NCBI GenBank assembly: GCA_965203355.1
Contig: OZ241889.1
Location: 2,816,001-2,880,000, forward strand
Reading direction: 5' to 3'
Length of the DNA stretch: 64,000 nt
Source of the DNA: Candidatus Latescibacterota bacterium
GTDB lineage: Bacteria; Latescibacterota; UBA2968; UBA8231
How positions within the stretch are numbered: position 1 is the stretch's first letter; the number at the start of each line of letters is the position of its first letter. Shown piece after piece: positions 9,521-53,801 of the stretch. The notes below the pieces were generated by a model that searched no databases, had not been told where the DNA came from, and saw only the letters and a list, made by a program, of their open reading frames with translations. Both the position numbers and the translations under genes were made by a program.

Positions 9521-10681
9521 ATGCGACGCTATAAGCTGATCGAAGAAGAAGTGGCCGCGATTCCGGCACCCGAATTGGCGGTCGAACAGGCTCTGCATCT
9601 ACACGCCCAATATCCCAAAGAGCTGGAGGTCGGCTTCCCCAGCCCGCTCAATAGTCAGTGTTATCAACTCAGGTCGCGGAGCTATGTCGGCGTGGTGCCA
9701 TTGGGCGCGAATGCCGCCTTGGAAATCAATCCCAAAATACGCTGCTCACTGCTCATGCCCATGCTGGAGTACGCCTACCAGTTGCCCAAGATCAGCGAGC
9801 ACAAGGCCCCGGCCACGATGGGGGATATTTACGAGTTTTGGGCCGAGGTCCTGGCGCGCAAGGTCTTGCAACGGGTGCGGCGTGGGCTGTTTTGGGATTA
9901 CCAAACCCGCGAAGGCCCCGGTCGGTGGGTGCGGGGGCGCATGTACCCCGAGCGCAGCGGGCTGGGTATTCATCCCTACTGTCGTTTTGCCGAGCACACG
10001 CCCGATATCCTCGACAACCGCATCTTGGCCAACGCGCTGTCCGGCCTGCGGTGCTTTGCCTTTCGCCGCGCCAGCGTTCGGCAGATGGTCGGTCGGGCTT
10101 GGTGGACGCTGAGCGAGCTAAATTACCGCCACATTCGCCCCGCTGACTGCCTCGGCGTCGCGTACCATCGGCTCAACGAGGACTACCGCCCCATGCATGC
10201 CCTGTGTTATCCCTTGCTCCAACAGCGCAGTCCAGCTTGGGGGGTAGGGGACGAGGACGGGCCAGCATACCTGTTGCACATGCCGACCTTATTCGAGCGG
10301 TTTTGCACGGCGTTTATTGACCACAAGCTCAATCACCAAGTCGAACTAAAAGCCCAGTATCACACGCGACTAAAGGGAACAGAGCGGCTTTCCTTTCGCT
10401 TAGATATGGCCCTATTTTCGGCGGCAACCGGGCAACCGCTGGCGGTAGTGGATGCAAAATACAAGGCCGATGGTCCCTCGGAACGCGATGTGCAACAAGT
10501 AGTTGCCTATGCAGTACAACTCGGCGTCCGCCGCGCCTTTTTGCTCTATCCCAGTAGCGATATAGACGAGCAGTTCGGGGTTGGTCCGGTCGCCGTGCAA
10601 GCACTCGGGTACGACCTTGCAGCCGAAGATATAGAGCAAGCAGGTCAGCACGTGATTCGCAAGATAGAATGTGTCCTATAA
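9521..10681 (+). CDS. mcrC: McrC-family PD-(D/E)XK restriction endonuclease subunit
   Basis: YVGV, INPK, DNRIL, MPTLFE, RLDM..DAKYK, DVQQVVAYA; coupled to mcrB. Confidence 0.9.
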   Translation: MRRYKLIEEEVAAIPAPELAVEQALHLHAQYPKELEVGFPSPLNSQCYQLRSRSYVGVVPLGANAALEINPKIRCSLLMPMLEYAYQLPKISEHKAPATMGDIYEFWAEVLARKVLQRVRRGLFWDYQTREGPGRWVRGRMYPERSGLGIHPYCRFAEHTPDILDNRILANALSGLRCFAFRRASVRQMVGRAWWTLSELNYRHIRPADCLGVAYHRLNEDYRPMHALCYPLLQQRSPAWGVGDEDGPAYLLHMPTLFERFCTAFIDHKLNHQVELKAQYHTRLKGTERLSFRLDMALFSAATGQPLAVVDAKYKADGPSERDVQQVVAYAVQLGVRRAFLLYPSSDIDEQFGVGPVAVQALGYDLAAEDIEQAGQHVIRKIECVL

Positions 10682-10698
10682 AATTTAATATGTAAATA
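10671..10698 (+). other. dif-like Xer site A
   Basis: GTGTCCTATAA-AATTTA-ATATGTAAATA. Confidence 0.7.
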
Positions 10699-10713
10699 AA
10701 CAGATAAAAAATT

Positions 10714-11967
10714 TTAAGACTCAACGAGAAACAAACTCAAATCAGCCCAGTACGTAATCACGACCAAACAAGCCAACAGAATGAACAAAAAAGGTAAAGA
10801 GACTCGGTAGAGCCGATGGACGGGCTGTTCAAAGCGGATACTGGCAATGAAGAGGTTGAGGCCAACAGGCGGCGTTGAATAGCCAATTTCCAAGTTAGTT
10901 AAAAAAATGATCCCGAGGTGAATGGGATGCACATCGTATGCTTCGGCGATGGGCAGAATTAAGGGCACGACGATGAGGAGGGCCGAGAACATGTCGATCA
11001 TACAGCCAACCACTAGTAGAAACACATTGAGAAGAATCAAGAACAGCAAGCGACTGCTGATGTGAGTCTCTATATAGGCAAGCAAGCGCGTTGGAATTTC
11101 CGCATCAATCAGATAATTGGTATAGGCCATAGCCGCAGCCAAGACGACGAAAATGCCGCCGAAGAGGACCATGCTGTCGCAGATGATCTTCGGCAGTTGC
11201 CCAATGGAGATCTCGCGGCGAATGAGCACCACTACCACCAATGCGTATAGGGCACTCAAGGCTGCGGCTTCGCTAACGGCGATGATCCCCCCGAAGATCC
11301 CCCCGAAGATCACTACCGGCAACAGCAACTCCCAACTACACGCAACAAAGGCCTGCGGCAATTGACGCCATCCAGTGGGGGGGGCGGGCGCAGCACTGCG
11401 CCGCCCTTGAAACAGACTGTAGCAAGACAGAGCACCCACCAGAAGCAAGCCGGGGGCAATGCCGGCCATGAAAAGCTGGTCTATCGGCGTCTCGGATACA
11501 ATCCCGTAGATGATCAGCGGCAAACTCGGTGGAAAGAGTAACCCCAAGCTGCCCGAAGTGGTAATCAGCCCGAGGGAAAACGAATCGGGCAGGTGCTGTT
11601 GGCGCAGAGCGGGCAACAACAGCCCACCGAGCGCGACAATTGTCATCCCCGAAGCCCCGGTCAAAGCCGTGAAGAGGGCACAGACGACAATGGCCATAAT
11701 GGCCAGCCCGCCTGGTAACCAGCCGAGCAAAGCTTGAGAGAAACGCACCAGCCGGGACGGTGCGCCGCTTTCAGCGAGGAGAAAACCCGTGATGGCAAAG
11801 AGCGGAATAGCCGTTAAGGTCGGGGTTTCGGCTATCCGGTACATCTCGATAAAGACGACGGTTAAATCGATCTCAGCGAGGGAGAAATGCAAAATGGCCA
11901 TCGCGCTGATGACCACAAAAAGCGGGACGCCGGCTAGGGCGGCTAGGGCGGCTAGGAGGCTGCTCAC
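10714..11967 (-). CDS. dctM: TRAP transporter large permease
   Basis: AIPLF, GSLGLLFPPS, GYSTPPVGLNLF; GTG start at 11967 overlaps dctQ stop. Confidence 0.9.
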   Translation of the reverse strand: MSSLLAALAALAGVPLFVVISAMAILHFSLAEIDLTVVFIEMYRIAETPTLTAIPLFAITGFLLAESGAPSRLVRFSQALLGWLPGGLAIMAIVVCALFTALTGASGMTIVALGGLLLPALRQQHLPDSFSLGLITTSGSLGLLFPPSLPLIIYGIVSETPIDQLFMAGIAPGLLLVGALSCYSLFQGRRSAAPAPPTGWRQLPQAFVACSWELLLPVVIFGGIFGGIIAVSEAAALSALYALVVVVLIRREISIGQLPKIICDSMVLFGGIFVVLAAAMAYTNYLIDAEIPTRLLAYIETHISSRLLFLILLNVFLLVVGCMIDMFSALLIVVPLILPIAEAYDVHPIHLGIIFLTNLEIGYSTPPVGLNLFIASIRFEQPVHRLYRVSLPFLFILLACLVVITYWADLSLFLVES

Positions 11968-12440
11968 GGGGGTTCTGCCGGAATGCGAAGGCGGCGTACG
12001 CCCTGCAAGAGGAAGCGCAGGGCCATCAGCCCAAAGGCGAGGGGAAAGCACAGTTGGGCAATCCAAGCGGGGGTGGCAAAGAAAGCCGTTGTGCCGAATG
12101 CGCGTTCGTCGAGCACAAAGCGGATAGCGATATAGGATAGATAGGAGCAAAGCACGGCGGCAAAAAAATCCGCGCAACTCAGGGTAATAGCTCGCACCCG
12201 GGCGGGTAGCAGACGCAACGCAGCGTCAATGCGGATGTGTTTATCGAGCCGGGTGGCCACCAAAGCACCCACTAATCCAATCCACAATACAAGGTGCCGC
12301 ACGAGACTTTCGGTGCCTAAGAAGGTGATGGAGAACAGATTGCGGATGATGATCTGCCCGCAGGTTAGCACCAGTAAGCAGGCGACCAAAAGGACGAGGA
12401 AGCCGGCTTCAAGGCGATGGAGGAAGGGCGGGTCGCTCAA
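11964..12440 (-). CDS. dctQ: TRAP transporter small permease
   Basis: 4 TM, ESLVRHLVLW, HIRID. Confidence 0.9.
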   Translation of the reverse strand: MSDPPFLHRLEAGFLVLLVACLLVLTCGQIIIRNLFSITFLGTESLVRHLVLWIGLVGALVATRLDKHIRIDAALRLLPARVRAITLSCADFFAAVLCSYLSYIAIRFVLDERAFGTTAFFATPAWIAQLCFPLAFGLMALRFLLQGVRRLRIPAEPP

Positions 12441-13441
12441 GGAGAAGCCCGGCGAAAGTCTTGGAGATGCCGCGCTATTTGTTCGTGGGCTTCGCGGGAA
12501 AAGGCCCGACCTACGAGTTTGGCTTCGGCTCTATCGACGAGTGTCTTGAAGTTCTCTACGGCTTTAGGGGCAACCTCGACCAAGGATAGGCCATTGGCCT
12601 GTAACACGGCCATAGCTTCGTCGTTTTCTTGGCGGTTGCGCTGCCCTAGAGCGATCATGTGCTGCTGCGTTATGCGGCGGATGTGCTCGCGGTCTTCAGC
12701 GGGAATTTTGTCGAAAGAGCCCTTGTCGATCAAGAGCGCACCTAGGGTGTAGTTAATCGGCAGTTGGGTGACGAATTTTGCACGGGTAAACCATTGGAGG
12801 ACAATGGTCGCCGACGGCGAGGCGTACACCACATCGATCAGATTGGTCTGCAACCCGAGGAGGACGTCCGGGATGTTGAGGGGAACCGAAGTGACGTCGG
12901 CTAAGCGGAATAGCACAGAGGTCAGCGGTTCATCAGGTAACTGCCATACCTTTTGTGTGCGCATGTCCGCGACAGTAGCTACGGGTTGCTGCGAGAGAAT
13001 GTGGACAAAGCCGATGTCGGCCCAACCGAGAAAGACATAGCCCCGTTCCTCGTATCCCTGTCGGTAAAATGCATCCATTTTCTCAAGCACGTAATCCACT
13101 TCGGCATAGTTGTCGAAGAGAAAGGGCATTTGCAACGCGAGCACATCAGGCAAGGTTTGGCTGACGCCTTGGCCACCAAAATTTCCGCCGTGGAGCTGGC
13201 CGATGCGCATCTTGCGCAAGACCACCTTCTCGTCGCCTTGGACGCCCCCGGGATAGATTTTGAACCCCACGTTGCCCCGGGTCTCGCGCCGCACCTCCGC
13301 ATCAATGGTGCGGAGGACATTGGCCCAGCTGCTGCCCTCCGGGGCGAGGGTGGCAATTTTGAGGAGGTGATTGGGTTGGGCCGCGACAGAGCTGGCTATG
13401 AGTGCGGCGACGACCGCCAAAAGTCCCTTAAAAGAAATCAT
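12437..13441 (-). CDS. dctP: TRAP substrate-binding protein (TatP type)
   Basis: Signal peptide, KIATLAPEGSSW, YPGGVQGDE, RKMRIGQL. Confidence 0.9.
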   Translation of the reverse strand: MISFKGLLAVVAALIASSVAAQPNHLLKIATLAPEGSSWANVLRTIDAEVRRETRGNVGFKIYPGGVQGDEKVVLRKMRIGQLHGGNFGGQGVSQTLPDVLALQMPFLFDNYAEVDYVLEKMDAFYRQGYEERGYVFLGWADIGFVHILSQQPVATVADMRTQKVWQLPDEPLTSVLFRLADVTSVPLNIPDVLLGLQTNLIDVVYASPSATIVLQWFTRAKFVTQLPINYTLGALLIDKGSFDKIPAEDREHIRRITQQHMIALGQRNRQENDEAMAVLQANGLSLVEVAPKAVENFKTLVDRAEAKLVGRAFSREAHEQIARHLQDFRRASP

Positions 13442-15367: not shown

Positions 15368-15406
15368 CCGCGGCCAACAGCCACTTAGGAGCGTGCGCGA
15401 GCCAAT

Positions 15407-15892: not shown

Positions 15893-16093
15893 AGAAATGG
15901 GCTACCCCCTGAGAATGTACGTACAGTGTGTGCAGAATTAGCTAGCACTAAAAAATATAAGGGGGTGGGTGATTTGGCAAATTCAAATCACCTTGGTTAT
16001 TATAGATAGGCAGCAAGGGATGCTCTCGCATGCCGGGGAGCTCAACACCAAGACTATAAAGTCGAGATTTAACTTCTTGGATGGAGATATAGC

Positions 16094-17113: not shown

Positions 17114-17120
17114 CTGAGTT

Positions 17121-17882: not shown

Positions 17883-17898
17883 GAGAATGCCACTCACC

Positions 17899-18397: not shown

Positions 18398-18474
18398 GGG
18401 CTAATAGCTCAGCTGGATAGAGCGCCGGTCTCCGGAACCGGAGGTCCCAGGTTCGAATCCTGGTTAGCTCACCA
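18398..18474 (+). tRNA. tRNA-Arg(CCG)
   Basis: Cloverleaf GGGCTAA..TTAGCTC-ACCA; anticodon arm CCGGT-CTCCGGA-ACCGG; GTTCGAATC. Confidence 0.95.
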
Positions 18475-18507
18475 TTTTGTCACCAGACTATGGTCGGATA
18501 ATTGTGT

Positions 18508-18585
18508 CGGGGTGTGGCGCAGCCCGGCTAGCGCGCTTCCTTGGGGTGGAAGAGGTCGCTGGTTCAAATCCAGTCACCCCGACCA
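18508..18585 (+). tRNA. tRNA-Pro(GGG)
   Basis: CGGGGTG..CACCCCG-ACCA; anticodon loop TTGGGGT. Confidence 0.95.
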
Positions 18586-18619
18586 TTTTTTGTAGGTAGA
18601 TAGAGATGCTTGCCCACGT

Positions 18620-18697
18620 CGGGGTGTAGCGCAGCCCGGCTAGCGCACCTGCTTCGGGAGCAGGGGGTCGCCGGTTCAAATCCGGCCACCCCGACCA
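18620..18697 (+). tRNA. tRNA-Pro(CGG)
   Basis: CGGGGTG..CACCCCG-ACCA; anticodon loop TTCGGGA. Confidence 0.95.
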
Positions 18698-26140: not shown

Positions 26141-27091
26141 ATGAAAAATCATCTGAAAATATTGTCGGGTTCCAGCAATCCACAGCTAGCCCAAGAAATA
26201 TGTGATTACTTAGACATCGCGCCCGCGCGCCGCCAGATCGTCCGGGCACCAAACGACAATATAAAGGTTAAAATCGAGGAGAACGTGCGCGAAGATGACG
26301 TCTTCGTCGTCCAGACCTCATCATCTCCAGTCAATCATCATTTTGTTGAGTTGCTGTTGCTAATTGACGCGCTCAAATACGCGTCGTCGCGCCGAATCAC
26401 GGCGGTGTTGCCCTATTATCCGTATGTGCGCTCCGACAAAAAGGACGAACCGCGCATTTCCATTAGCGCCCGTCTCGTCGCCGACTTGCTCCAAGCCGCC
26501 GGGGCCGACCGGATCTTGACCATTGCCTTGCACAGTCCGCAAATCGCAGCGTTCTCGCGCATTCCGGTGGACCAATTGTGGGCGACAAGCCTCCTGTGCC
26601 ATTTTATGCGGCTGAAGGGCCTCGGTAACGCCGTGGTGGTGTCGCCCGACGTGGGCAGTGCCGATGAAGCTAGCGCGTACGCGCGCCGGCTAGGTTTGCC
26701 GTTGGCCATTATGGACAAACGCCGCCACGCGGACGACGAAAAAGCCGAGATTAAAAGCATGATAGGCGAGGTCGCCGGTCGCGATGCCTTGCTTTTTGAC
26801 GACGAGGTGCTGACCGGGGGCTCCATGATGCAGTCGATCGAGGTGCTCAAAGAAAGGGGAGCACACCGCATACTGGCGGGCTGTACGCACGGCGTTTTTT
26901 CCGGACAGGCCTTAGCGAGAATAGACGCCTCACCCGTAGAATTATTCGCCACTACGAATACCATTCCCTTGCCTGCGGACAAGCCAAGGCGCAAAATCGC
27001 CGTGCTGAGCGTCGCTCGGTTGTTGGGGGATGCAATCAAAGCCATTCACCATGGCGAGTCAGTGAGCCGCTTGATTGAATGGGGGGACTAA
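26141..27091 (+). CDS. prs: Ribose-phosphate pyrophosphokinase, paralogue 1
   Basis: ENVR..DVF, RITAVLPYYPY.R, SPD, DKRR, THG. Confidence 0.9.
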   Translation: MKNHLKILSGSSNPQLAQEICDYLDIAPARRQIVRAPNDNIKVKIEENVREDDVFVVQTSSSPVNHHFVELLLLIDALKYASSRRITAVLPYYPYVRSDKKDEPRISISARLVADLLQAAGADRILTIALHSPQIAAFSRIPVDQLWATSLLCHFMRLKGLGNAVVVSPDVGSADEASAYARRLGLPLAIMDKRRHADDEKAEIKSMIGEVAGRDALLFDDEVLTGGSMMQSIEVLKERGAHRILAGCTHGVFSGQALARIDASPVELFATTNTIPLPADKPRRKIAVLSVARLLGDAIKAIHHGESVSRLIEWGD

Positions 27092-27256: not shown

Positions 27257-27282
27257 GTTCTATAACCTATAATATGTAAAAT
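27255..27282 (+). other. dif-like Xer site B
   Basis: AAGTTCTATAA-CCTATA-ATATGTAAAAT. Confidence 0.65.
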
Positions 27283-28498: not shown

Positions 28499-28509
28499 AG
28501 GAGTTGTTG

Positions 28510-29433
28510 ATGGGCCGTGCTGATCTCAAGGTTTTCGCCGGGCGGAGCAATCCCGCACTAGCTGAGGGCATTTATCAGTCGTTAGCCATTGAGCCAGGGC
28601 GCATCGATTTTATCGACTTTAGCAACGAAAACATAAAGGTGAAGATTTGCGAAAACGTGCGCGGCCGCGATGTGTTCTTTATCCAAACTTCGTGTCCGCC
28701 CGTTAGCGATCATTTGATGGAGTTGCTCATAGCGCTCGACGCCCTAAAATACGCCTCGGCTGGCCGCATCACCGCGGTCTTGCCCTATTATCCGTATGCG
28801 CTGGCCGATAGCAAGGACGAGCCGAGAATTTCCGTGACGGGTCGCTTAGTGGCCGACCTGATTGCCGAGGCCGGGGCGGACCGCATTCTCACCATGACTT
28901 TACATAGCCCGCAGACTATGGGTTTTAGCCGGATTCTAGTGGATCAGCTAAGCGGCGTCCCGGCCATATGCTCCTACTACGCCGACCTCGACCGCGGTAA
29001 TTTGGTCGTGGCCGCCCCGGACATCAGCCGCGCCAAGGTCTCCGAAATCTACGCCCAGCGGCTGGGGTTGCCCCTCGTGGTCGTCGACCAAGCGGCCGGG
29101 GAAAACAGGGTTATTGGCGACGTGGCGGACCGCGATGTCGTATTCTTCGACGATGCGATTATTACTGGTGATTCCATCCTCAAGGGAGCGACCGCGGTCA
29201 AGGAACACGGGGCGCACAAAGTCTATGCTGGCTGCGTCCACGGGACCTTAACCAAAGAGACGATAGCGCGGCTGGATACATTCAACTTCCAAGCCTTAGC
29301 CATTACCGATACGATCCCCTTGCCGACAGCCGCCCGCACCCCTATGGTGCAGGTGTGCTCCGTAGCCTCGCTCTTTGCCAGGGCCATCCGCGCCATTCAC
29401 GAAGAAACGTCCATCAGCGCACTATTCAACTGA
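28510..29433 (+). CDS. prs: Ribose-phosphate pyrophosphokinase-like, paralogue 2 (degenerate)
   Basis: ENVRGRDVF, RITAVLPYYPYA, FFDDAIITG; lacks the KRR loop. Confidence 0.8.
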   Translation: MGRADLKVFAGRSNPALAEGIYQSLAIEPGRIDFIDFSNENIKVKICENVRGRDVFFIQTSCPPVSDHLMELLIALDALKYASAGRITAVLPYYPYALADSKDEPRISVTGRLVADLIAEAGADRILTMTLHSPQTMGFSRILVDQLSGVPAICSYYADLDRGNLVVAAPDISRAKVSEIYAQRLGLPLVVVDQAAGENRVIGDVADRDVVFFDDAIITGDSILKGATAVKEHGAHKVYAGCVHGTLTKETIARLDTFNFQALAITDTIPLPTAARTPMVQVCSVASLFARAIRAIHEETSISALFN

Positions 29434-31090: not shown

Positions 31091-32024
31091 ACTGACCATC
31101 GAGGATCTGCTGGCCACCTACGGGCAGCAACTACGGCTGAAGCTCAGTGCCGGTGCTGAGGGACTACCGCGAACTATCAACAACAGCGACATCCACCGCC
31201 CTGGTTTGGCCCTAATGGGTTTTGTCGAGCTGTTTACTCTCGATCAAGTACAGCTCTTGGGCAATACGGAAGCAGAGTACTTGCGCACCTTGTCCGCAGA
31301 CAGACGGCGGCAGGCACTCAAAATCATATATCAATTTGATATTCCATGCGTGGTTTGGACCGGTAGGGGACGGATGTTTCCCGAGTTGCGACAGCTCGCC
31401 GACGAGTGTGCGGTGCCCCTGCTGAAGTCTGGATTCAACACAGCCGAGTTCACCCATCTTATCCGTTTTTACCTCGACGAGGTGTTCGCGCCCCAAATAT
31501 CCATGCACGGGACACTCGTGGATGTCTCTGGGGTAGGGTTGCTCTTTCGCGGTCGCAGCGGCATTGGCAAAAGTGAGGTCGCCTTGGATTTGGTCGAGCG
31601 CGGACATCGGCTGGTAGCCGACGATGTGGTCATCATCAATCGCAAGCCCCAAGGCATTCTGGTGGGCTGTAGCTCGGAAATGCTCCAAGACCACATCGAA
31701 ATTCGCGGCATCGGTATCCTAGATGTAAAAAAGATGTTTGGCGCGTGGAGGACTCGGCGGCAGAAGCGGGTGGAGCTAGTGGTCAACCTCGTTGATTGGG
31801 ACGAAAAATACGCCTACGAACGCCTTGGTCTTGAAGACAATAAGGTGGCAATCCTCGGCGTCGAGGTGCCCGAGGTCTTTATCCCGCTGTTTCCGGGTAA
31901 AAATATCACGGTGCTCGCCGAGACCATAGCGATAGATTATCTCTTGCGTTTGGACGGGGAGTACGCGGCACGGACCTTGAGCGACCGGCTCCAAGAGCGG
32001 ATTAAGGCGAGCGAAAAACCATGA
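31083..32024 (+). CDS. hprK: HPr kinase/phosphorylase
   Basis: RPGL, HGTLVDV, GRSGIGKSE, LVADD, EIRGIG. Confidence 0.95.
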   Translation: MSELTIEDLLATYGQQLRLKLSAGAEGLPRTINNSDIHRPGLALMGFVELFTLDQVQLLGNTEAEYLRTLSADRRRQALKIIYQFDIPCVVWTGRGRMFPELRQLADECAVPLLKSGFNTAEFTHLIRFYLDEVFAPQISMHGTLVDVSGVGLLFRGRSGIGKSEVALDLVERGHRLVADDVVIINRKPQGILVGCSSEMLQDHIEIRGIGILDVKKMFGAWRTRRQKRVELVVNLVDWDEKYAYERLGLEDNKVAILGVEVPEVFIPLFPGKNITVLAETIAIDYLLRLDGEYAARTLSDRLQERIKASEKP

Positions 32025-32833
32025 TGACGCTCGGTGTGGTAGGCCATGCTCGCGAGGTCGCCGCTCATCGGGATGCCTTGCGGGGGTGCCGCGATATCCA
32101 GCTCGTACACCAAGCCGACTGTGCCGCCGTATTGGAACGAAAAATAGATGGGCTGGTGTTGTTGCAAGTGGAAGATAAATCGCATTGGGGCGGCGTGGCC
32201 CTCGCGTCGGGTCTGCACGTTATGGCGACCCATCCAGTACAAGTGCCGAGCCATTCTAAGGTATGTGTGCTGTCCCTGGGGAGGCATACGCACTTTTGCT
32301 CGGCTTTAGCCGCTCGACAGGGCATAGCGCATTATTCGCTGGAGCTTTCCTTTGATTCGGCTTTATTCGATCCTATGGATCGCGAGATGGTGTGCAGCCA
32401 AGCGGCCTTGGACCTATGCGACCTACTGCTGAGCACTTGGGGGCCGGTAGATGTGCTGTATAGCAGGATGCGCAACTTTTTTCATCTGGGTCGGATGGAG
32501 GACGTATCGGCCGCGTTGCTGCGGATGCGCAACGGCGTCGAAGGCTCGGTTGCCCTCCTCGATTTTCCAGCGGTGGTGCCGGCGTTGCGCATCCGCGAGT
32601 GCGCCCAAGACGAAATAGTCGATACTTCTTGGCCTTGGGTTTGGGAAGCGGACGATCTGGCGGCGTACTATCGCAATTTCGTCGCCTACATCCAAGGCCG
32701 CGCCCAGCCGTTGTTGGGTTTAGAGCAGGTGACCGAAAGCTATCGTCTTTTGGAGTGGATGCGAATGTCGGCGAGACAGGATGCGATTTTAAACTGCAAG
32801 GAAATAAAAAGTCTCATAAAATTTAATATGTAA
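32021..32833 (+). CDS. Degenerate Gfo/Idh/MocA-like oxidoreductase
   Basis: Overall layout (LGVVG..GLHV.., ED.S.ALL..NGV.G, F...I.G..P) but EKP replaced by THP. Confidence 0.5.
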   Translation: MMTLGVVGHAREVAAHRDALRGCRDIQLVHQADCAAVLERKIDGLVLLQVEDKSHWGGVALASGLHVMATHPVQVPSHSKVCVLSLGRHTHFCSALAARQGIAHYSLELSFDSALFDPMDREMVCSQAALDLCDLLLSTWGPVDVLYSRMRNFFHLGRMEDVSAALLRMRNGVEGSVALLDFPAVVPALRIRECAQDEIVDTSWPWVWEADDLAAYYRNFVAYIQGRAQPLLGLEQVTESYRLLEWMRMSARQDAILNCKEIKSLIKFNM

Positions 32834-32836
32834 CCA
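32809..32836 (+). other. dif-like Xer site C
   Basis: AAGTCTCATAA-AATTTA-ATATGTAACCA. Confidence 0.7.
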
Positions 32837-32850
32837 TAAAACAAAAAAAA

Positions 32851-33852
32851 TCAGCCACCAATCTTAATATAATCAGACGCATTGTCGAGCAGTCTCTCGC
32901 GATTTTCGTAGTAGCGCATGGTCGTCTTTAGATCCTTGTGGCGCAAATGGGCTTGCACCTGCTGGGGCTTGGCTCCACCTTCAATCGCCAAAGTGCAGCA
33001 GGTGTGCCGGAACATGTGTGCGGTGACGTTCTGGGGAAGGCCAGCACGCAAGGCGTACTTTTTGACGATGTGATTCACCGATTGATCCGTCAGTGGCTGG
33101 CCCCGAGAATGGTTGCGCGACAGACTGATGAAAACCTTGCCGGTCGTCGGCAAACCCACCATCTGTAGTTGTTGTTTGTATAATTCTAGATGATGTAGGA
33201 CGATGTTTTGCAGTTTGATTTCCTGCGCCACGCCTGATTTAGTCTCGGGCAGGTACAGGACGTGAAAGACGCCTTCTAAGGATATATCCTCCCAAGCGAC
33301 GCCTGCCACTTCGGAGCGGCGCAGCCCGCCAAACGTGAGCAAGTGAAATATGGCCGCATCGCGCGTGCGTACCAAGTCGTCTTTTTCCTCGGCGATGGCT
33401 TGCTGAATCTTGTTTAGCACCTGATTGGAAAGCGCTTTACCGGCCAGCGTTTCATCTACCTTGTAGCCGCGCACCAATGTAGAGTCAGCGGGATTATTCT
33501 CAATGTGGCCTAAGGCGACCAACATCTTGAACAACGACTTCAGACTGGACAGCTTTCTGTTGATGCTGCTGCGCTTGTAGCCTTCGTTGACGAGTTGATT
33601 TCTAAAGGCGACCACGTGCTCAAAAGTGATTGACTGCAAGATGGCAAGCGATACTTCATGTAGTTCTAGGTCGATGGATGCAAAGAAATGCTCGAGATCG
33701 GAGTAATACGCACGCCGTGTGCGTTCGCTGAGCTGGCCGCTGAGAAATTGTTCCAGCGGATCGTCCGCCATCAACGCGGGCGCAGGCGTTATCCTACAGA
33801 CGATCGGGTTGCGGGTTGCGGCCGCAACATGGCGGCTCGACTGCTCGCTCAT
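32851..33852 (-). CDS. Tyrosine recombinase (Xer-like, single-recombinase candidate)
   Basis: SAM-like N-domain (TRRAY..DL..F, SINRKLSSLKS), GLRRSEV, TKSG, HMFRH, LRH, TTMRY: full R-K-H-R-H-Y set. Confidence 0.9.
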   Translation of the reverse strand: MSEQSSRHVAAATRNPIVCRITPAPALMADDPLEQFLSGQLSERTRRAYYSDLEHFFASIDLELHEVSLAILQSITFEHVVAFRNQLVNEGYKRSSINRKLSSLKSLFKMLVALGHIENNPADSTLVRGYKVDETLAGKALSNQVLNKIQQAIAEEKDDLVRTRDAAIFHLLTFGGLRRSEVAGVAWEDISLEGVFHVLYLPETKSGVAQEIKLQNIVLHHLELYKQQLQMVGLPTTGKVFISLSRNHSRGQPLTDQSVNHIVKKYALRAGLPQNVTAHMFRHTCCTLAIEGGAKPQQVQAHLRHKDLKTTMRYYENRERLLDNASDYIKIGG

Positions 33853-34047
33853 AAAATCTCGCTAGGGCTTAATTGGTATTCCAAATATAGCGAACATCAC
33901 GGGATTTTGCTTTCGCGATGCTTTGTGGCCGCGTCTTGACCCTCGCCGTCCTATCTGAGGCCATGAGGGGCAGTCGCACATGTCAGGGCGCGAAGAGCAA
34001 GATCAATTCTAAACTGGACAATTCATCCACGAACAACCTCCCTTCGG

Positions 34048-34079
34048 ATACTACCGATAATGCCTGTTATCGGTAGTAT
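34048..34079. other. Symmetric dif-like recombination site
   Basis: ATACTACCGATAA-TGCCTG-TTATCGGTAGTAT: perfect 13-bp arms, 6-bp spacer, ATAA-N6-TTAT core. Confidence 0.8.
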
Positions 34080-34099
34080 AATAGCCGAAATTAAAGAAA

Positions 34100-35866
34100 T
34101 CAGAATTTTCGCAGCAGACGCTCCATATCGCTCAATTTCATCCACGCCATGATCGGCTTATCCGTTGGGCTTATGTGCGGCGAGTCGACCTTTAGCAATT
34201 CGCTGATCAAATGTGCCATTTTCTCGGCGTTCAGTTTTTGCCCCTTCTTGATGCTCACTTTGCGTACGTAGGCCAAGACGATTGCTTCGCGCCAAGATCG
34301 ACCCGAATGTTGGCCATCGCGCACGTCGTTCAATAGCTGATAAAAAACCTCGCCTTCGCCAAAGCGATCCAGTTCGACAGGCACGGCTTCCACCAATACC
34401 GTACGGGCACCAAAATCCCGTAAGACAAAGCCCAGCTTGGCAACATCGCCTTGTATTTGCTTGAAAACTTCAAAATCCGCTGCGCCCATTTCTAGCTGTA
34501 TGGGAAAAAGCAACTGCTGGCTTTCTCCAGTTACGCCGTCCATTTTTTTTATGGCTCGATCGTAATTGATGCGTTCGTGTGCAGCCTGCTGATCGACAAA
34601 CAGCAAGCCGTCGGCTACCTCGACGAGGATGTACTGATTGTGAACCTGCCATATTGCAGCGTCTTCGGCGATGGCAATTTGGGTCGCCGGAGCGACGAAA
34701 GTAACGGCGAGCTGATCATCGGCATCCTGGGGTGTTGACCCGGGCCCCGGCAACTTCTGCAATATCGGCGATGTCGGTTCGCCCACGTGTGCTGGGATGG
34801 CAACGCCCTTGCTTTCGCTGAAGCGAGATGGGTCGTCCGGCCGCCGTATTGGGGACGTAGCATAAACAAAGGCTTGCGTATCGGGTCGCCGCAAGCTTTG
34901 CCGGACGCTGTTTTCAATAGCCGCGACAACCTGCCCTTCATTAGCCAAGCGAATTTCCCGCTTGGTCGGATGGACATTGACGTCGATTTTTCGCGGATCC
35001 ATATCGATCCAGAGCATAAACACCGGATGATGTCCTTCGGGTAGCAGCCCCTCAAAGCACCGCTGTACGGCGTTGGCTATCAATCGCGAAGCAATAGGCC
35101 GCCCCTGTACAATGAGGTACTGCTTGCCCTTGCTCCGACCACAGCGCTCGGGACCGACCAACACCCCTTCGAGCTTGAGGCCCTCTTCCGCGTACGCGAG
35201 GTCCAATAGTTCGGCAACTGGAATGCCCAACAGTTCGGCCGCCCGCTCCCGCCGCGATGAAGGAGCGTAGTTCAAGACTTGGCGGTCTTCGCGTTCTAGT
35301 TCAAACCCCAAGGCTGGATAACCAGTCGCTAAATGAATGATGGTCTGGGCCACGTGGCGCGCTTCCACATCAACAGAGCGGAGGAACTTGCGGCGCGCCG
35401 GTGTATTAAAAAACAGGTTCTTTACCACGATGGTCGTGCCGCGCGCTCGGCCGATGCTGTGCATTTCTCGCTCTATGCCCCCTTCCACGACCAAGCGCGT
35501 CCCCACTTCATCTTCCTGTGTACGCGATTCAATGGCCAAGTGAGCTACGGCCCCAATGCTGGCTAGGGCTTCGCCGCGAAAGCCTAGCGTCTGAATCCGA
35601 AACAGATCAGCTACTGAAGCCATCTTGCTCGTGGCATGGCGACGAGCACACAACGCGATATCCGCCCCGTTCATGCCCGAACCATCGTCGGTCACGACGA
35701 TCGACTGCTTGCCACCGGCCTTGATTTCCACGCGGATTTTAGTGGCACCAGCATCGATCGAGTTTTCGACCAATTCCTTCACGACCGAAGCAGGCCGTTC
35801 CACCACCTCGCCAGCGGCTATTTTCCCAATGAGACTTTCGTCTAGAACGCGAATAGTACTCGCCAT
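34100..35866 (-). CDS. mutL: DNA mismatch repair protein MutL
   Basis: IAAGEVVERPASVVKELVENSIDA, GFRGEAL, DVNVHP. Confidence 0.95.
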   Translation of the reverse strand: MASTIRVLDESLIGKIAAGEVVERPASVVKELVENSIDAGATKIRVEIKAGGKQSIVVTDDGSGMNGADIALCARRHATSKMASVADLFRIQTLGFRGEALASIGAVAHLAIESRTQEDEVGTRLVVEGGIEREMHSIGRARGTTIVVKNLFFNTPARRKFLRSVDVEARHVAQTIIHLATGYPALGFELEREDRQVLNYAPSSRRERAAELLGIPVAELLDLAYAEEGLKLEGVLVGPERCGRSKGKQYLIVQGRPIASRLIANAVQRCFEGLLPEGHHPVFMLWIDMDPRKIDVNVHPTKREIRLANEGQVVAAIENSVRQSLRRPDTQAFVYATSPIRRPDDPSRFSESKGVAIPAHVGEPTSPILQKLPGPGSTPQDADDQLAVTFVAPATQIAIAEDAAIWQVHNQYILVEVADGLLFVDQQAAHERINYDRAIKKMDGVTGESQQLLFPIQLEMGAADFEVFKQIQGDVAKLGFVLRDFGARTVLVEAVPVELDRFGEGEVFYQLLNDVRDGQHSGRSWREAIVLAYVRKVSIKKGQKLNAEKMAHLISELLKVDSPHISPTDKPIMAWMKLSDMERLLRKF

Positions 35867-35872
35867 ATGTCC

Positions 35873-36397
35873 TCATAACTCGGCCCAAAGCCGCTCAGCC
35901 CGCTGGCGGAATTCGGCTTGGGTAATTTGGCCTTGTTTGAGCGCGGTTTCCAAGTCGCGCAAGCGACGGCGTGGCCCCCCGCCCCCTTTGAGCTCTAGCC
36001 GTATTTGAGACCAGATGTGCCATCCCCCCACGCCGAGCAATAAGGCGATGAAAACCACACCTCCCCACCACGAGGCCCCTTGCTCTTGACGCACTGCGCC
36101 CCCCCGCCGTCGCCAATCTTCGGCCACGGCCGGGTCAGGCTCGGCTAGCTCAATCCGCTTGGCTACCGTCTCGCCGTTGATTCCTTGGACGCGGACCGGG
36201 CTTGTGAGCTGCCAAGTGAGTTCTTGGGGTTGCACGATCAGATACTCAATTTGATCGGCCTCTCGTATCCGGTCGAATTGCTCCCTAGTAACCGGCACGG
36301 CCATAGGACTCAGCATGTTGAACAGCAACACGATGGCCAACAAGAAGAATGCGAGTGCAAGAGCGAAGTAGGTGGGTTGTGATTGTTTTTTTGTCAT
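35873..36397 (-). CDS. Two-TM protein resembling FtsH N-terminal region with SHOCT-like tail
   Basis: TM-periplasmic loop-TM-GGG, then L..ALKQGQITQAEF. Confidence 0.55.
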   Translation of the reverse strand: MTKKQSQPTYFALALAFFLLAIVLLFNMLSPMAVPVTREQFDRIREADQIEYLIVQPQELTWQLTSPVRVQGINGETVAKRIELAEPDPAVAEDWRRRGGAVRQEQGASWWGGVVFIALLLGVGGWHIWSQIRLELKGGGGPRRRLRDLETALKQGQITQAEFRQRAERLWAEL

Positions 36398-36401
36398 TTT
36401 T

Positions 36402-36429
36402 TGTTTACATATAAAATTTTATAAGACTT
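36402..36429 (-). other. dif-like Xer site D
   Basis: Minus strand AAGTCTTATAA-AATTTT-ATATGTAAACA. Confidence 0.7.
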
Positions 36430-36432: not shown

Positions 36433-39309
<2,877 letters not shown>

Positions 39310-39318
<9 letters not shown>

Positions 39319-39337
39319 AATAATCCTTATAAGACAT
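39310..39337 (-). other. dif-like Xer site E
   Basis: Minus strand ATGTCTTATAA-GGATTA-TTATGTCAATA. Confidence 0.7.
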
Positions 39338-47482: not shown

Positions 47483-47496
47483 AACTATTCCCTCAG

Positions 47497-48840: not shown

Positions 48841-48864
48841 GATTTTTTGCTCGACCTTCGCTGC

Positions 48865-49317: not shown

Positions 49318-49335
49318 ACGCGCTTTCCCCCTAAA

Positions 49336-49366
49336 ATAAAAAAACGGGCTATGCTATGACGCCCGC
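49336..49366 (-). promoter_or_regulatory. rimP leader attenuator hairpin
   Basis: CGGGC..GCCCG followed by T7, upstream of the rimP RBS; TTGCCT-17-TATCTT promoter at 49409-49381. Confidence 0.65.
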
Positions 49367-49441
49367 CCAATTGGGATTATAAGATATAGGATTGTATTGA
49401 TTTAGGCAAGACAACTTAACAGCCATAGCCAAAGGCCAATG

Positions 49442-49900
49442 CTAGAGGAAACGCAAAATCTCGCGCAGTTCTTTTTTAGTCTCTTCAATCATGCTGAATG
49501 CGGCCTCCTGGTCCTGTGCGGGTTCGGGATCGGGTCGCTTCACTACTAAATCAGGACGGCTCCGTTGTTCAGCGAGCAAATCAGATACTTGCTCGCCAAC
49601 TTGACGCAGAAGTTCGGGTTCGTCTTTGAGTTTCTTCTTTACGCCTTGCGTCGTATAGCATTCCTCGTAGAGTAAGCGTTTGATCAATAGGATGATCCCT
49701 ATATCGCGCTCCCTATAAGCTCTGTTTTTGCCGCCGCGCGAACGCCGCGGTCGCAAACACGCAAATTCCTTCTCCCACGCCCTAAGTGTATAAGGTTGCA
49801 ACTGCGTGAGTTCGGCGACTTCACTGATGCTGTAATATAGCTTTTTTTGCCGTGGATTTTTCACGACCGCACTTCCCTGTATCCTTTGCGATGACGCCAC
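49442..49900 (-). CDS. MerR family transcriptional regulator
   Basis: YYSISEV, LRAWEKEF, RAYRERDI, LLYE. Confidence 0.9.
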   Translation of the reverse strand: MASSQRIQGSAVVKNPRQKKLYYSISEVAELTQLQPYTLRAWEKEFACLRPRRSRGGKNRAYRERDIGIILLIKRLLYEECYTTQGVKKKLKDEPELLRQVGEQVSDLLAEQRSRPDLVVKRPDPEPAQDQEAAFSMIEETKKELREILRFL

Positions 49901-51216
49901 GCGATGCGCAAGGGGGTTCCCTCGAAATCAAACTCCGATCTCAGTCGGTTTTCGATGTGGCGTCGATAATTTCCCGGCACGGAGCGGGGCAGATTCGTAA
50001 AGATCGTAAACGCCGGAGGGTTAATCGCGTGTTGGGTGGCGTAGAGCAGGCGGATGTCGCGGCCTTCTTGTGTTGCTAGGTACTCGCCGGATAGCTGCTG
50101 AATGATCTTGTTCAAGTGCGCGGTGGGAATCCGCGTCCGACGCTTGTCGCCCACCGCGGCCACTGCTTCGAGGCACTTGTGGACCCGCCGCCCGGTCAAG
50201 CCCGATATGCACAGCACTGGATAGTTGCGCAAAAAAGGATAGCGCCCGCGCAATTCGCCGCGATACTCATCCACAGTGCCCGCGGCCACTAAATCCCATT
50301 TATTGATCGCCACCACCAAGCCACAGCCTGATTTTATTATTTGCTCCATGATGCGGACATCCTGCATGACCCACCCCTCGGCCCCGTCTATGAGCACAAC
50401 CGCCACATCGGCTCGCTCGATGCTATGGGCCGCCCGGCGCGTACTGTAGAATTCCACCGAATCATCGACCTTAGATCGCCGCCGCAAACCGGCCGTATCC
50501 ACGAACTGCAAGTGGCTACCCTGCCAAGTCAAGCGAAATTGAGTCGGGTCGCGGGTCGTGCCAGGACGATCGTGGACGATGGAAACCTGATAACCGGCGA
50601 GGCGGTTAATAAGCGTGGATTTGCCCACGTTGGGACGCCCGACCAAAGCGACCCGAATCGCGGCCTCGTTCCATTCCGCCCCATACGCCTCGGCCCCGTC
50701 AAAGAGCGCAATGAGCGCATCAAGCAAGTCCCCAGAACGCCGCCCGGTCACGGCTGAAACGGGGAGGGGATCCCCCAAGCCGAGCCGATAGAATTCGTCG
50801 AGCGGCGCGACTGGCCCCGCCCCATCCACCTTGTTGACGGCCAGCAAGCACTTCCCGCCCCCACGGCGCAGCATGGCCCCCACCTCTTGGTCGAGGTCGG
50901 TCAAACCCGTGGTCCCATCGCAAAGAAAAATAGCTATGTCCGCTTCTGCCAAGGCGTTTGCCGCTTGGGAGCGCACCGCCGAGGATAGCGCGTCTTTGGC
51001 ATGGGGCATGTAGCCCCCTGTATCGACCAAAGTGAAGGAGTGCCCTCCCCACTCAGCCTCGGCAAATATCTGATCGCGTGTGACCCCGGGCTGGCCATCG
51101 GTTATGGCCCATCGGGTCCCCAAGATGCGGTTGAAGAGGGTCGATTTGCCCACATTGGGACGCCCGACAATCGCCACGATGGGGCGGCGATGGCTTTCGA
51201 CGGTTTGGGTGTTCAT
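49861..51216 (-). CDS. der: Ribosome biogenesis GTPase Der
   Basis: Two GRPNVGKST G-domains, DTGG/DTAG, FEGTPL. Confidence 0.97.
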   Translation of the reverse strand: MNTQTVESHRRPIVAIVGRPNVGKSTLFNRILGTRWAITDGQPGVTRDQIFAEAEWGGHSFTLVDTGGYMPHAKDALSSAVRSQAANALAEADIAIFLCDGTTGLTDLDQEVGAMLRRGGGKCLLAVNKVDGAGPVAPLDEFYRLGLGDPLPVSAVTGRRSGDLLDALIALFDGAEAYGAEWNEAAIRVALVGRPNVGKSTLINRLAGYQVSIVHDRPGTTRDPTQFRLTWQGSHLQFVDTAGLRRRSKVDDSVEFYSTRRAAHSIERADVAVVLIDGAEGWVMQDVRIMEQIIKSGCGLVVAINKWDLVAAGTVDEYRGELRGRYPFLRNYPVLCISGLTGRRVHKCLEAVAAVGDKRRTRIPTAHLNKIIQQLSGEYLATQEGRDIRLLYATQHAINPPAFTIFTNLPRSVPGNYRRHIENRLRSEFDFEGTPLRIAWRHRKGYREVRS

Positions 51217-52571
51217 TTTTCGCGCCCTATGTAGTACCCCAACTCAGTTAGCTGCCGCCCTTCCCCTTGCACTTTTACGCCTTGGTCGGCCCAAACGCGC
51301 TCGAGCGATTCGACCAAGTCGTACCCCCCTACCGCCAGGGGGACCCCAGCCTCTTCGGCCAGTTGCGGCACGGTCATGTCGTCCAGGGTCAAACCCTCGC
51401 CATTGATGCAATTGGGCGGCAGGAGGACTAAATCCCGCTGGATTCCATCGCGCACTCTTGCCGCCATATCGCAGCCGGTCAGCAGGCCCGACACGGTGAT
51501 ACCGCGCCCGAAAAAGTCGTTATCTACCGGCAGGAGATCGACTTGGACGTTCTCAATGGCATTCAGCCTATTGACTAGGGGGACGAGGATGCGCTCGGCC
51601 AATCGGCCGGTCAGCAGGCCAATCCGCATGGCCTTGGCCGTGTGCGCAGGCAACCGCTTGCTGGCCTCGTCCCAAGTGTCGAGGAAGGAGCGGACCATAC
51701 CGATGCCGTTTTCTAGCTGGGGAAACGCATCGTAATACGCCGCCGCTGGCAGGGGCCGGCCCGTCAGCAGAAAAATTTCGTCAGCCACATAGACGAAGCG
51801 CTCGCCAAAGTGCGCTTTAAATTGCAAGCCCCATGTTTTGGCGGCGGCCGCGTACTCCGCGGCCTTGGCCGGGGTCACCGGATCGAGTTGGACGAGCTTG
51901 TGCCGATGATCGGTCAGCCCCACTGGCACCAGTGCCACGGAGCGCACGGCGGGATAGTACGCAGACAGATCGGCCACTGTGCGTTCCAGATGCGGCCCAT
52001 CGTTCCAGCCTGGGCAGAGCACAACTTGGGTGTGCATTTCAATGCCGTTATCAGCTAGCTTGCGCAAGCGCTCGTTTATATCGACGGTCGCTTTTGTGCG
52101 CCCGAGCATGACTTGCCTCAGTTCGGGATCGGTGGCGTGGACTGAGATGTATTGCGGCGTTAGCCCTTGTTCAATGATGCGGTCTATATCGCTTTCGCGG
52201 ACGTTGGTCAGGGTTACGTACGAGCCGTGGAGAAAGGAGAGCCGAAAATCGTCATCTTCAAAATACAAGCTGCGCCGCATGCCCTTGGGCATTTGATGGA
52301 TAAAGCAAAAGACGCATTTGTTGTTGCAACGGCGCAAGCGCATATCCTCGAAGACCAGCCCTAAGGACTCGCCGCGCTGGCGCTCAATTTCGGCCTCGTA
52401 TCGTTCTTTGTCGCGCTCGATCTCTAGGCAGATTACCGCTTCGGCACTATGGACCTGCACGTCAATCAAATCGCGCACCGCTTCGCCATTGATGCGCAAA
52501 ATGCGATCGCCGATGCAAAATCCCGCGCGGGCGCCGAGGCTATTGGGCTCAATTTGTTTTACGACAACCAT
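51213..52571 (-). CDS. PDZ + radical SAM DUF512 protein
   Basis: CNNKCVFCF, DDD.RLSFL, QLENGIG. Confidence 0.9.
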   Translation of the reverse strand: MVVVKQIEPNSLGARAGFCIGDRILRINGEAVRDLIDVQVHSAEAVICLEIERDKERYEAEIERQRGESLGLVFEDMRLRRCNNKCVFCFIHQMPKGMRRSLYFEDDDFRLSFLHGSYVTLTNVRESDIDRIIEQGLTPQYISVHATDPELRQVMLGRTKATVDINERLRKLADNGIEMHTQVVLCPGWNDGPHLERTVADLSAYYPAVRSVALVPVGLTDHRHKLVQLDPVTPAKAAEYAAAAKTWGLQFKAHFGERFVYVADEIFLLTGRPLPAAAYYDAFPQLENGIGMVRSFLDTWDEASKRLPAHTAKAMRIGLLTGRLAERILVPLVNRLNAIENVQVDLLPVDNDFFGRGITVSGLLTGCDMAARVRDGIQRDLVLLPPNCINGEGLTLDDMTVPQLAEEAGVPLAVGGYDLVESLERVWADQGVKVQGEGRQLTELGYYIGREK

Positions 52572-52679
52572 AGTGAACTAAGCAATTAATCTACGTATCG
52601 TATTGTGGGGCAAGATATTCTATCGGTATCGGTAAAGGTATATGGATATTGCGCCGACGGCAATACTTTAGAAAGAAGT

Positions 52680-52714
52680 AAAAAAATCCGCCCGACCCAG
52701 TGGGCCAGGCGGAT
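52680..52714 (-). terminator. Terminator after tRNA-Gly
   Basis: Minus strand ATCCGCCTGGCCC..GGGTCGGGCGGAT followed by T tract. Confidence 0.75.
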
Positions 52715-52716
52715 GA

Positions 52717-52791
52717 TGGAGCGGGAGACGGGAATCGAACCCGCGACATCAAGCTTGGGAAGCTTGCGTTCTACCCCTGAACTACTCCCGC
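52717..52791 (-). tRNA. tRNA-Gly(CCC)
   Basis: GCGGGAG..CTCCCGC-TCCA; anticodon arm CAAGC-TTCCCAA-GCTTG. Confidence 0.95.
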
Positions 52792-52831
52792 TAATTTTTG
52801 TCCATAAGGTAAAGCGCGGCTCCAACCGCTG

Positions 52832-53782
52832 TCAACCCGCTCCACGGCCCCAGCGATACCTCCACTCGCCGACGATGCGCTGGACGACGCCAGCCTTTCC
52901 CCATACGTCGAGGTCTAATTCGCGCAAGCGACGATCGCGGCGGCACCACGTTATTTGTCGCTTGGCCAAGTGGCGGGTGCGCTGCTTGGTCTGCTCAATA
53001 GCTTCCTGCCAAGGGCAATGCCCGGCCAGCGCCCGGCACATTTCGAAATAGCCCAAAGTCCCCAAGGCACTTTCGCTTGGATCGTATCCCATTTCGCGCA
53101 AGGAGCGGACTTCCTCGACCCATCCCTGCTCGACCATCTGATCAACCCGCTGGTCAATTCGCTCGTAGAGCCGGCGGCGCACCATAGTCAGACTGATCAT
53201 TTGCGGGCGGCGCACCAGCGGCTGTCCCTGACGCTCTCGCCAGAGCTTGCTGAGCGTACCCTTACCCGTCATCACTACCTCCAACGCCCGCAGGATTCGC
53301 TGTGCGTCGCTCGGCGGCAAACGCGCTTGCGCGACTGGATCTCGACGGCCTAACTCCTCATATAGGGATGCCAGCCCCTCGCAGTGCAGGCGCTGTTGCA
53401 ATTCGGCGCGGGTCGGCGCGTATTGGGTGTCGTCCTCAAAGCATCCGTCTAACGCACTCTGCCAGTACAGGCCCGTTCCTCCCACCACAATGGGAAGGCC
53501 CTCTCGGTTCCAGACCTGCCCGATGATATGCCGTGCGGCGCGCGCGTACGCTCCCGCGCTGTAGTCTTCCTCGGGAGCGATTACATCAAGTAAATGATGG
53601 GGGCATTGATTTTGCTGTTCAGCGGTTGGCTTGGCCGTACCGATATTCATGTAGCGGTAGATTTGCCGCGAGTCGGCCGAGATAATCTCCGCTTTGGGTA
53701 CGTGTTGAGCTACTTCGAGGGCTATTTCTGTTTTGCCGGTGGCCGTGGGTCCAGTGATTAGTATTAATGGTTTAATTAACAT
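52832..53782 (-). CDS. miaA: tRNA dimethylallyltransferase
   Basis: GPTATGKT, DSRQIY, IGTAKP, GGTGLY, AKRQ.TW. Confidence 0.95.
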   Translation of the reverse strand: MLIKPLILITGPTATGKTEIALEVAQHVPKAEIISADSRQIYRYMNIGTAKPTAEQQNQCPHHLLDVIAPEEDYSAGAYARAARHIIGQVWNREGLPIVVGGTGLYWQSALDGCFEDDTQYAPTRAELQQRLHCEGLASLYEELGRRDPVAQARLPPSDAQRILRALEVVMTGKGTLSKLWRERQGQPLVRRPQMISLTMVRRRLYERIDQRVDQMVEQGWVEEVRSLREMGYDPSESALGTLGYFEMCRALAGHCPWQEAIEQTKQRTRHLAKRQITWCRRDRRLRELDLDVWGKAGVVQRIVGEWRYRWGRGAG

Positions 53783-53801
53783 ATTACATATTATAGGACT
53801 A
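53774..53801 (-). other. dif-like Xer site F
   Basis: Minus strand TAGTCCTATAA-TATGTA-ATATGTTAATT. Confidence 0.7.

Follow-up and report, generated by a model that had tools for sequence, protein, structure and literature searches.

A mirror-polar array of six dif-like sites and a third Xer-type recombinase gene at the replication terminus of a Candidatus Latescibacterota lineage

A single dif site on each chromosome is nearly the rule, and experimental evidence for additional Xer sites comes from the terminus of Bacillus subtilis only. The window analysed here, a stretch of 64,000 nucleotides from an uncultured sponge-associated bacterium (Candidatus Latescibacterota bacterium, contig OZ241889.1, positions 2,816,001 to 2,880,000), raises the question of what six dif-like sites, three on each strand, do around a single replication terminus. 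The answer that we favour, at a probability somewhat above even, is that the six are selected Xer binding and recombination sites, restricted to the terminus of one Latescibacterota lineage that has gained a third Xer-type recombinase, and that the outer four would be orientation-dependent and non-productive in recombination.

Six dif-like sites around one replication terminus

A preliminary description of the window, made from its letters alone, had proposed six sites (A to F) sharing the pattern GTYYYATAA-N6-WTATGTHAA, the first three on the plus strand and the last three on the minus strand. Scanning of the pattern over the window, with 100 dinucleotide-preserving shuffles as the null, gave five exact matches (0.00 expected from the shuffles) and, with up to two mismatches, exactly six (0.02 expected); these are the six proposed sites, all at their proposed places and in the proposed strand order. 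A chance or low-complexity origin of the sites is ruled out by the shuffles and by reversed-pattern controls (0 hits). The two inner sites, C and D, border a cassette that is found in both orientations among relatives and is described below.

Site A, 10673..10696, plus strand: exact match; outermost left site, at the convergent junction of an mcrC-like gene (plus) and a TRAP permease gene (minus)
Site B, 27257..27280, plus strand: exact match; abuts the apt start codon (27281)
Site C, 32811..32834, plus strand: one mismatch; inner site, left border of the invertible cassette and inversion breakpoint
Site D, 36404..36427, minus strand: exact match; inner site, right border of the cassette and inversion breakpoint, between the leuS stop and the start of a small open reading frame (ORF)
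Site E, 39312..39335, minus strand: exact match; between asnS and leuS, the right arm containing the leuS ATG (39318)
Site F, 53776..53799, minus strand: exact match; outermost right site, the right arm containing the miaA ATG (53782)

All the sites are squeezed into gene junctions, and the overlaps with start or stop codons previously noted at apt, leuS, miaA and rqcH were confirmed by the ORF listing: the rqcH-like stop shares one nucleotide with F (the first base of the site), the mcrC-like stop codon is the TAA within the left arm of A, and an ORF of 270 aa without family (32021-32833) ends inside C. The gene order, established from the ORF listing and family scans, is in the left half mcrB-/mcrC-like, A, then after an interval prs, B, apt, and further on the 270-aa ORF and C; after C, on the minus strand, a tyrosine recombinase gene, mutL and a 174-aa ORF, then D; and past D leuS, E, asnS and pnp, followed at a distance by miaA, F, an rqcH-like gene and valS.

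The sites have the sequence features of dif (a length of about 28 bp, with a pair of imperfectly inverted 11-bp arms and a centre of 6-8 bp), and their dif-like nature is supported by their match to the common single-copy motif of the phylum, ATAA-GATAYA-TTATGTAAA, seen in a sample of 150 Latescibacterota genomes. They depart from dif in copy number, with 4-7 core matches per genome in all 14 clade genomes instead of one copy per replicon.

The cumulative GC skew of the window rises up to position 34,000 and then drops, its maximum lying between C and D, and the distances of A to F from the C/D midpoint are -23.9, -7.4, -1.8, +1.8, +4.7 and +19.2 kb. A recombinase-based scan of species-representative genomes returned 53 related loci, nearly all labelled Candidatus Latescibacterota, many of them on complete chromosomes of 4.5-6.7 Mb. 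On the chromosomes of five relatives the pattern, allowing one mismatch, has 28 matches (5-6 each), and 28/28 fall in one region, within a stretch of 27-44 kb that contains one orientation flip (reversed-pattern control, 0 hits). A looser core, ATAA-N6-WTATGTMAA, scanned at 0 mismatches in 14 complete or near-complete relatives, has 27 matches in the same five genomes and 45 in nine further ones; 71 of the 72 are array sites, and in the 14 relatives the array spans about 45 kb and changes orientation once. An orthologue of site A occurs in the arrays of 14/14 relatives, and orthologues of F were found in 11 genomes at a position weight matrix score of at least 20. The distance from the array to dnaA is 48.6-51.8% of the chromosome in 5/5 genomes checked, so that the arrays lie where dif is found, at the terminus, at the skew switch and opposite the origin. 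Because the matches are confined to arrays opposite dnaA in the relatives, the motif is not a genome-wide one and marks the terminus; an even spread over the genome, which would have spoken against the preliminary description, is decisively contradicted, and the conservation, terminus clustering and mirror polarity that it had proposed all stood. The lone core match outside the arrays (G011:C1:607401-607419, or L094 1401-1419) lies at a distance of about 305 kb from the array; its spacer is rich in G+C and its left arm poor, and it probably arose by chance.

The same distribution bears on the explanation that we hold least probable of all, and hardly credible, namely that the motif is a gene-expression signal (a promoter, a translation-initiation element or a local operator) whose orientation simply follows the genes. 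Sites B, D, E and F do lie directly 5' of start codons on the strand of the gene, and orientation equals gene direction at all sites, but 71/72 matches are at the terminus while a general signal would recur in front of thousands of genes, A and C are placed at convergent junctions, on the 3' side of genes, the motif equals the single-copy dif-like motif of the phylum, and C and D are recombination breakpoints. A general promoter or ribosome-binding motif was likewise rejected by the genome-wide distribution.

The third Xer-type recombinase and its invertible cassette

The centre of the array is occupied by a gene that the preliminary description had missed, encoding a third Xer-type tyrosine recombinase, and the features between C and D are as follows.

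32835..36403, no strand assigned: invertible cassette of 3.5 kb (small ORF, mutL and xer), holding the cumulative GC-skew maximum (34,000)
32851..33852, minus strand: third Xer-type tyrosine recombinase (P0001), at the array centre, its stop 17 bp from site C
34100..35866, minus strand: mutL (TIGR00585, 476.7 bits), inside the cassette
35873..36397, minus strand: small ORF of 174 aa without known family, the first gene of the cassette, with which it travels

The recombinase has the Pfam domains PF02899 (SAM-like N-domain) and PF00589 (catalytic), and belongs to the tyrosine recombinase superfamily while scoring below both canonical NCBIfam equivalog cut-offs (XerC 130.7 bits, cut-off 335.15; XerD 119.8 bits, cut-off 329.6). 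Among solved structures E. coli XerD is the nearest (E 1.2e-17, the alignment spanning residues 36-316). Residues R178, K205, H279, R282, H305 and Y314, which we take to be the catalytic ones from the alignment with E. coli XerD and from the motifs of the family, are invariant in 18/18 family members (62-89% identity), and the family forms a tight orthologous group with generic annotation only. For the 174-aa ORF there was no NCBIfam match, and the Pfam matches were sub-threshold only.

Five relatives encode three Xer-type proteins per genome: a canonical XerD (336-347 bits, above the NCBIfam cut-off in 5/5 genomes), a second, XerC-like Xer (286-289 bits) and the divergent third Xer, the only one encoded in the array, the other two genes lying elsewhere. 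SMC is above its cut-off in 5/5 genomes and FtsK with a gamma domain is present in 5/5, so that the xerC, xerD, smc and ftsK genes named in the preliminary description all have counterparts (XerC-like, XerD, SMC, FtsK-gamma). The fork-arrest proteins Tus (PF05472) and RTP (PF02334) were detected in 0/5 of these genomes each, the positive controls E. coli and B. subtilis being detected.

Over 80 kb the chromosomes of the five relatives match the gene order of the window throughout, save for the cassette: the block of 174-aa ORF, mutL and xer is inverted in two of the five (G003 and G004). Within a close set made of the window and 21 loci (22 genomes), the 3' end of xer stands beside the 270-aa ORF, as in the window, in 10 and beside leuS in 12; in 27/27 informative distant loci it stands beside leuS. 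A maximum-likelihood tree was built from the flanking genes leuS, asnS, pnp, hprK and rsgA (8,598 columns, cassette genes excluded), and it needs at least six changes of cassette state, at least five of them forced by starred branches (flips counted among 25 related genomes); 0 bootstrap trees are compatible with a single state change. Sister pairs that differ in state have supports of 97-100 (L008/L009, L011/L014, L003/L010), and the state hardly clusters on the tree, as few changes being needed in 47-60 of 500 label shuffles.

The outer flanks are exchanged exactly at C and D, the spacer and the right arm remaining with the cassette: in L003, L007, L011, L014 and L043 it is the small-ORF end that carries the spacer ATAATT with TTATG, in either state. 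The crossover therefore lies at the junction of left arm and spacer or to the left of it, a position consistent with one strand exchange made on the XerC-like side; the sequences of the pair L008/L009 suggest that there the left arm moved too. Thus C and D are inverted sites flanking a segment known in both orientations, with the breakpoints inside the sites. The sites had previously been taken as non-recombining, which does not hold for C and D, given the repeated flips among relatives, and agrees with the four outer sites, which show no rearrangement; the argument then offered, ATATG in place of TTATG next to the spacer, fails, this position toggling between A and T among orthologous sites in the relatives. 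Whichever way the cassette lies, its reading direction matches that of its upstream gene (leuS or the 270-aa ORF) and runs towards the site beside xer, and inversion thus moves the point of gene convergence by 3.5 kb with no obvious switching-off of a gene.

Population data were taken from Logan contigs, which drop rare variants. The stretch or a part of it was found in fourteen runs, ten labelled sponge metagenome and four with coded organism names. The contigs of run X1, which holds a related strain, break off at 32810, 32846, 36407 and 36431, to either side of C and of D, a picture compatible with heterogeneity of orientation or with a repeat at least as long as the k-mer. In the same run the gap between mutL and xer (33853-34099, 247 bp in the window) differs by indels, with 14 nt inserted behind 33876 and 131 nt replaced (33916-34048). 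The GC skew of xer is opposite in sign to that of mutL, on the same strand.

Within the 150-genome sample of the phylum, the third Xer is present in 48/150; core sites number 2-7 in each of its 16 closest holders and 0-2 in most other sampled genomes. Many sampled genomes share one common motif with the spacer GATAYA, which is taken as the ordinary single dif of the phylum. Several sites with AT spacers likewise occur in subclades at about 78% and 67% identity, and several subclades retain 4-7 of them. Most of the distant loci have a dif-like site directly 3' of xer, its XerD-like arm towards the gene, and nine of them have a second, inverted site directly 5' of xer, the pair enclosing the recombinase gene only; an inverted-repeat search in nine distant loci recovered the pair in L049 and L053 only, the others needing a looser regular expression, with which nothing was found in L026, L039, L042, L044 and L047. 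These arrangements are taken as an older form of the system. The place of the partner site varies by clade (immediately 5' of xer itself, or else 5' of either the small ORF or the 270-aa ORF), and in some distant clades leuS and its neighbour are separated by an E-like site. A mobile element or cargo of an integrative mobile element exploiting Xer (IMEX) was ruled out, with core genes between the sites and the order hprK...mutL-xer-leuS-asnS-pnp retained down to 57% recombinase identity. Some third-Xer loci of the same synteny, L012 and L025 among them, are labelled Gemmatimonadetes, Gemmatimonas phototrophica or Magnetovibrio sp., and are likely mislabelled or mis-binned contigs of metagenome-assembled genomes.

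The geometry of the array (two opposed polar groups, with the gene of a binding protein between the innermost pair) also fits a polar replication fork trap, in which the recombinase on asymmetric sites would admit forks and block their exit, as in Tus-Ter and RTP-Ter, and the lack of Tus and RTP in the five genomes means that this role is not filled by a known protein. We nevertheless regard a fork trap as very unlikely: tyrosine recombinases are not known to arrest forks, all the catalytic residues are kept, which a pure barrier would not need, and the inner sites recombine.

The four outer sites

Across 11-15 genomes, the arms of the six positions have a mean major-allele frequency of 0.93-1.00, against 0.71-0.90 for the spacers, of which there are 6-10 distinct ones per position; conserved arms with variable spacers are the pattern expected of protein-binding arms. 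The spacers are partly position-specific and partly kept (B mostly CATATA, E GGATAA, F T....A). The arms of E are 100% conserved in 15/15 genomes, and its spacer is the best conserved of the six; this spacer (GGATAA or GGATTA, the latter in the window) supplies an AAGGA upstream of the leuS ATG, and one 24-mer at E thus seems to double as recombinase site, ribosome-binding site and start codon. Larger nested inversions (B with E, A with F) were not found in 5/5 genomes over 80 kb nor in any of the 22 close genomes, and the same two sets show no rearrangement of any kind among the four outer sites.

Spacers identical within one genome make up seven pairs, against 3.2 expected (128 of 5000 permutations reach seven). 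In G017 the spacers of A and B are identical, and in G019 three sites of the same side share one 19-mer, which hints at occasional synapsis and conversion between sites. The spacers of the inner pair are identical in G001, G002, G012 and G013. In the window it is A and C that have identical spacers, as a direct repeat around essential genes, and therefore something beyond spacer mismatch must prevent their lethal deletion.

The restriction of inversions to C and D, with no rearrangement of the outer sites in the two genome sets, is what would be expected if only the inner pair mattered, as a programmed inversion switch worked by the encoded recombinase, and if the outer sites were decaying or neutral leftovers kept through their overlap with starts, stops and translation-initiation signals. 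The position of the partner site, which differs between clades, agrees with this, as do the leuS and miaA start codons within E and F and the AAGGA of E. Still, such leftovers appear an unlikely explanation to us: both arms are kept at 0.93-1.00, including the left arm where it is non-coding (B, D and E), while the spacers vary; A lies at a convergent junction without a start codon; several subclades retain their 4-7 AT-spacer sites; and AT-rich 24-mers left over ought to decay at 57% G+C.

The spacers bear on a further explanation, that all six sites are redundant working dif copies for dimer resolution, each recombining with its own sister copy by virtue of a position-specific spacer. The partly conserved, position-specific spacers, the completeness of both arms at all sites and the occasional homogenisation in G017 and G019, suggestive of synapsis, fit such copies. 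The idea is nonetheless rather improbable in our judgement, for the spacers are not orthogonal (A and C in the window, the inner pair in the four genomes named above), polarity is unneeded for dimer resolution, and no system is known to us that resolves dimers through several dif sites on one replicon, nor does the accessible part of PMC5357621 describe one.

We return to the reading stated at the outset, that of selected Xer sites with a non-productive outer four. The site beside xer would be the working dif, the inversion between C and D would be catalysed by Xer, and the four outer sites would bind Xer proteins without productive recombination, acting in an orientation-dependent manner on the machines that move towards the terminus. 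Their most likely role would be unloading of SMC-ScpAB, in the way of B. subtilis XerD at its extra terminus sites, and/or an FtsK stop, functions made plausible by the presence of genes for both SMC and FtsK-gamma. A more ambitious version is possible, and we put it forward as a tentative idea that is less probable than its opposite: a dedicated terminus-organising system built from Xer and dif, with a catalytically intact third Xer in an invertible cassette exactly at the terminus, in which the nested, mirror-polar array of full dif-like sites would load Xer proteins that act directionally on SMC, FtsK or replication forks, as barriers or unloaders, and inversion would relocate the working dif and mutL between the replichore ends.

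Several points weigh against the favoured reading. The sites are orthologous across relatives and the genes converge on the terminus, so that site orientation is inseparable from gene direction, the two being confounded at every site. The XerD-like arm (WTATGTAAA) of each site points to the array centre and away from the incoming FtsK, which by analogy with E. coli would be the non-activating side. Spacer difference alone cannot be what blocks lethal deletions between A and C, and the signal of concerted evolution in the spacers is modest (p about 0.03, uncorrected for relatedness). Since the inverted repeats at C and D reach about 34 bp in some genomes, homologous recombination may account for the flips. 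None of the nine distant loci with a pair around xer alone is inverted (0/9), and in runs X11 and X12, which match the window exactly, the contigs cross C and D in one orientation, that of the window, rare variants being dropped from such contigs.

Neighbouring genes and comparison with known systems

Other features were observed along the array. A McrBC-type restriction pair at 8088-10681 (an AAA_5 ATPase with DUF1802, then the McrC-like protein) ends exactly in A and is syntenic in 5/5 relatives compared. Two ribose-phosphate diphosphokinase (prs) paralogues (26141-27091 and 28504-29433) flank apt and the gene of a YbgF/BamD-like TPR protein. LeuS (36433-39318) has about 961 aa counted from the ATG inside E, and its best NCBIfam match falls in two stretches, as if a large insertion were present when it is compared with the model of 843 positions. 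Genes for tRNA-Arg(ccg), tRNA-Pro(ggg) and tRNA-Pro(cgg) form a cluster at 18398-18697, in the left half of the array, and that for tRNA-Gly(ccc) lies at 52717-52791, just 3' of miaA.

A literature search in a limited collection, supplements being outside its scope, gave no report of such an array, of extra dif-like terminus sites or of Xer/dif in Latescibacterota. The locus presents a natural and deeply conserved system that departs from the one-dif rule, with six complete mirror-polar sites, a central third Xer and a flipping mutL cassette. Action of the outer sites on SMC or FtsK would mean that Xer proteins organise the terminus beyond Firmicutes too and that the orientation of the sites matters; if dif sites in direct repeat around essential genes are tolerated, a control against lethal deletions is revealed, which bears on the licensing of Xer. 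The inversion, for its part, is a clean natural substrate for asking which strand exchange a Xer paralogue performs.

With dif and XerC/XerD the array shares the 11-6-11 layout, the XerD-type right arm, the position at a GC-skew switch opposite dnaA, a motif equal to the common single-copy site of the phylum, and a genome encoding canonical XerD, a second Xer and FtsK-gamma; unlike dif, it has six copies in mirror polarity, some of them direct repeats around essential genes, and a third Xer gene among them. In the xerS-difSL system of streptococci and lactococci the recombinase gene and its site are direct neighbours and form a single module, according to the accessible text of PMC5357621. Such single-recombinase modules (also XerH and XerA) resemble the locus in the placing of C 17 bp from the xer stop, an adjacency kept across the lineage, but the genomes studied here keep XerC-like and XerD proteins besides, there is a second, inverted site, and the spacer has 6 bp instead of 11.

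Xer-mediated rearrangement between dif-like sites on plasmids is described for the pdif modules of Acinetobacter in the available portions of PMC9947245 and PMC13141974. As in the inversion of pdif segments, in fim-type switches and in Rci shufflons, short inverted sites here bound a two-state segment with the recombinase inside, whereas this cassette is chromosomal, lies at the terminus, carries the housekeeping gene mutL, has no obvious on/off output and is nested in outer sites that remain unshuffled. At the terminus of Lactobacillus delbrueckii ssp. bulgaricus two inverted dif sites lie within inverted repeats of 38-76 kb (PMC5345009, in the part of the text available); the likeness consists in more than one dif, in opposite orientation, at the terminus, but there a very large duplication gave rise to the second dif as a side effect, while here the sites are of 24-28 bp, with unique DNA between them and conservation deep in the lineage.

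The extra XerD sites (XDS) of the B. subtilis terminus, with their unloading of SMC-ScpAB, were reportedly described by Karaboja et al. in 2021. The array resembles them as a set of several extra Xer-type sites beside dif, confined to the terminus: five extra sites lie in the terminus here, in a genome with XerD and SMC. It differs from the XDS as reported in that its sites keep both arms, show strict mirror polarity within about 45 kb and have a dedicated third recombinase at their centre. Unloading of SMC by XerD bound at its sites in B. subtilis is reported in the accessible text of PMC10945525, PMC11894783 and PMC8357415, the first of which also discusses the need for several XerD sites.

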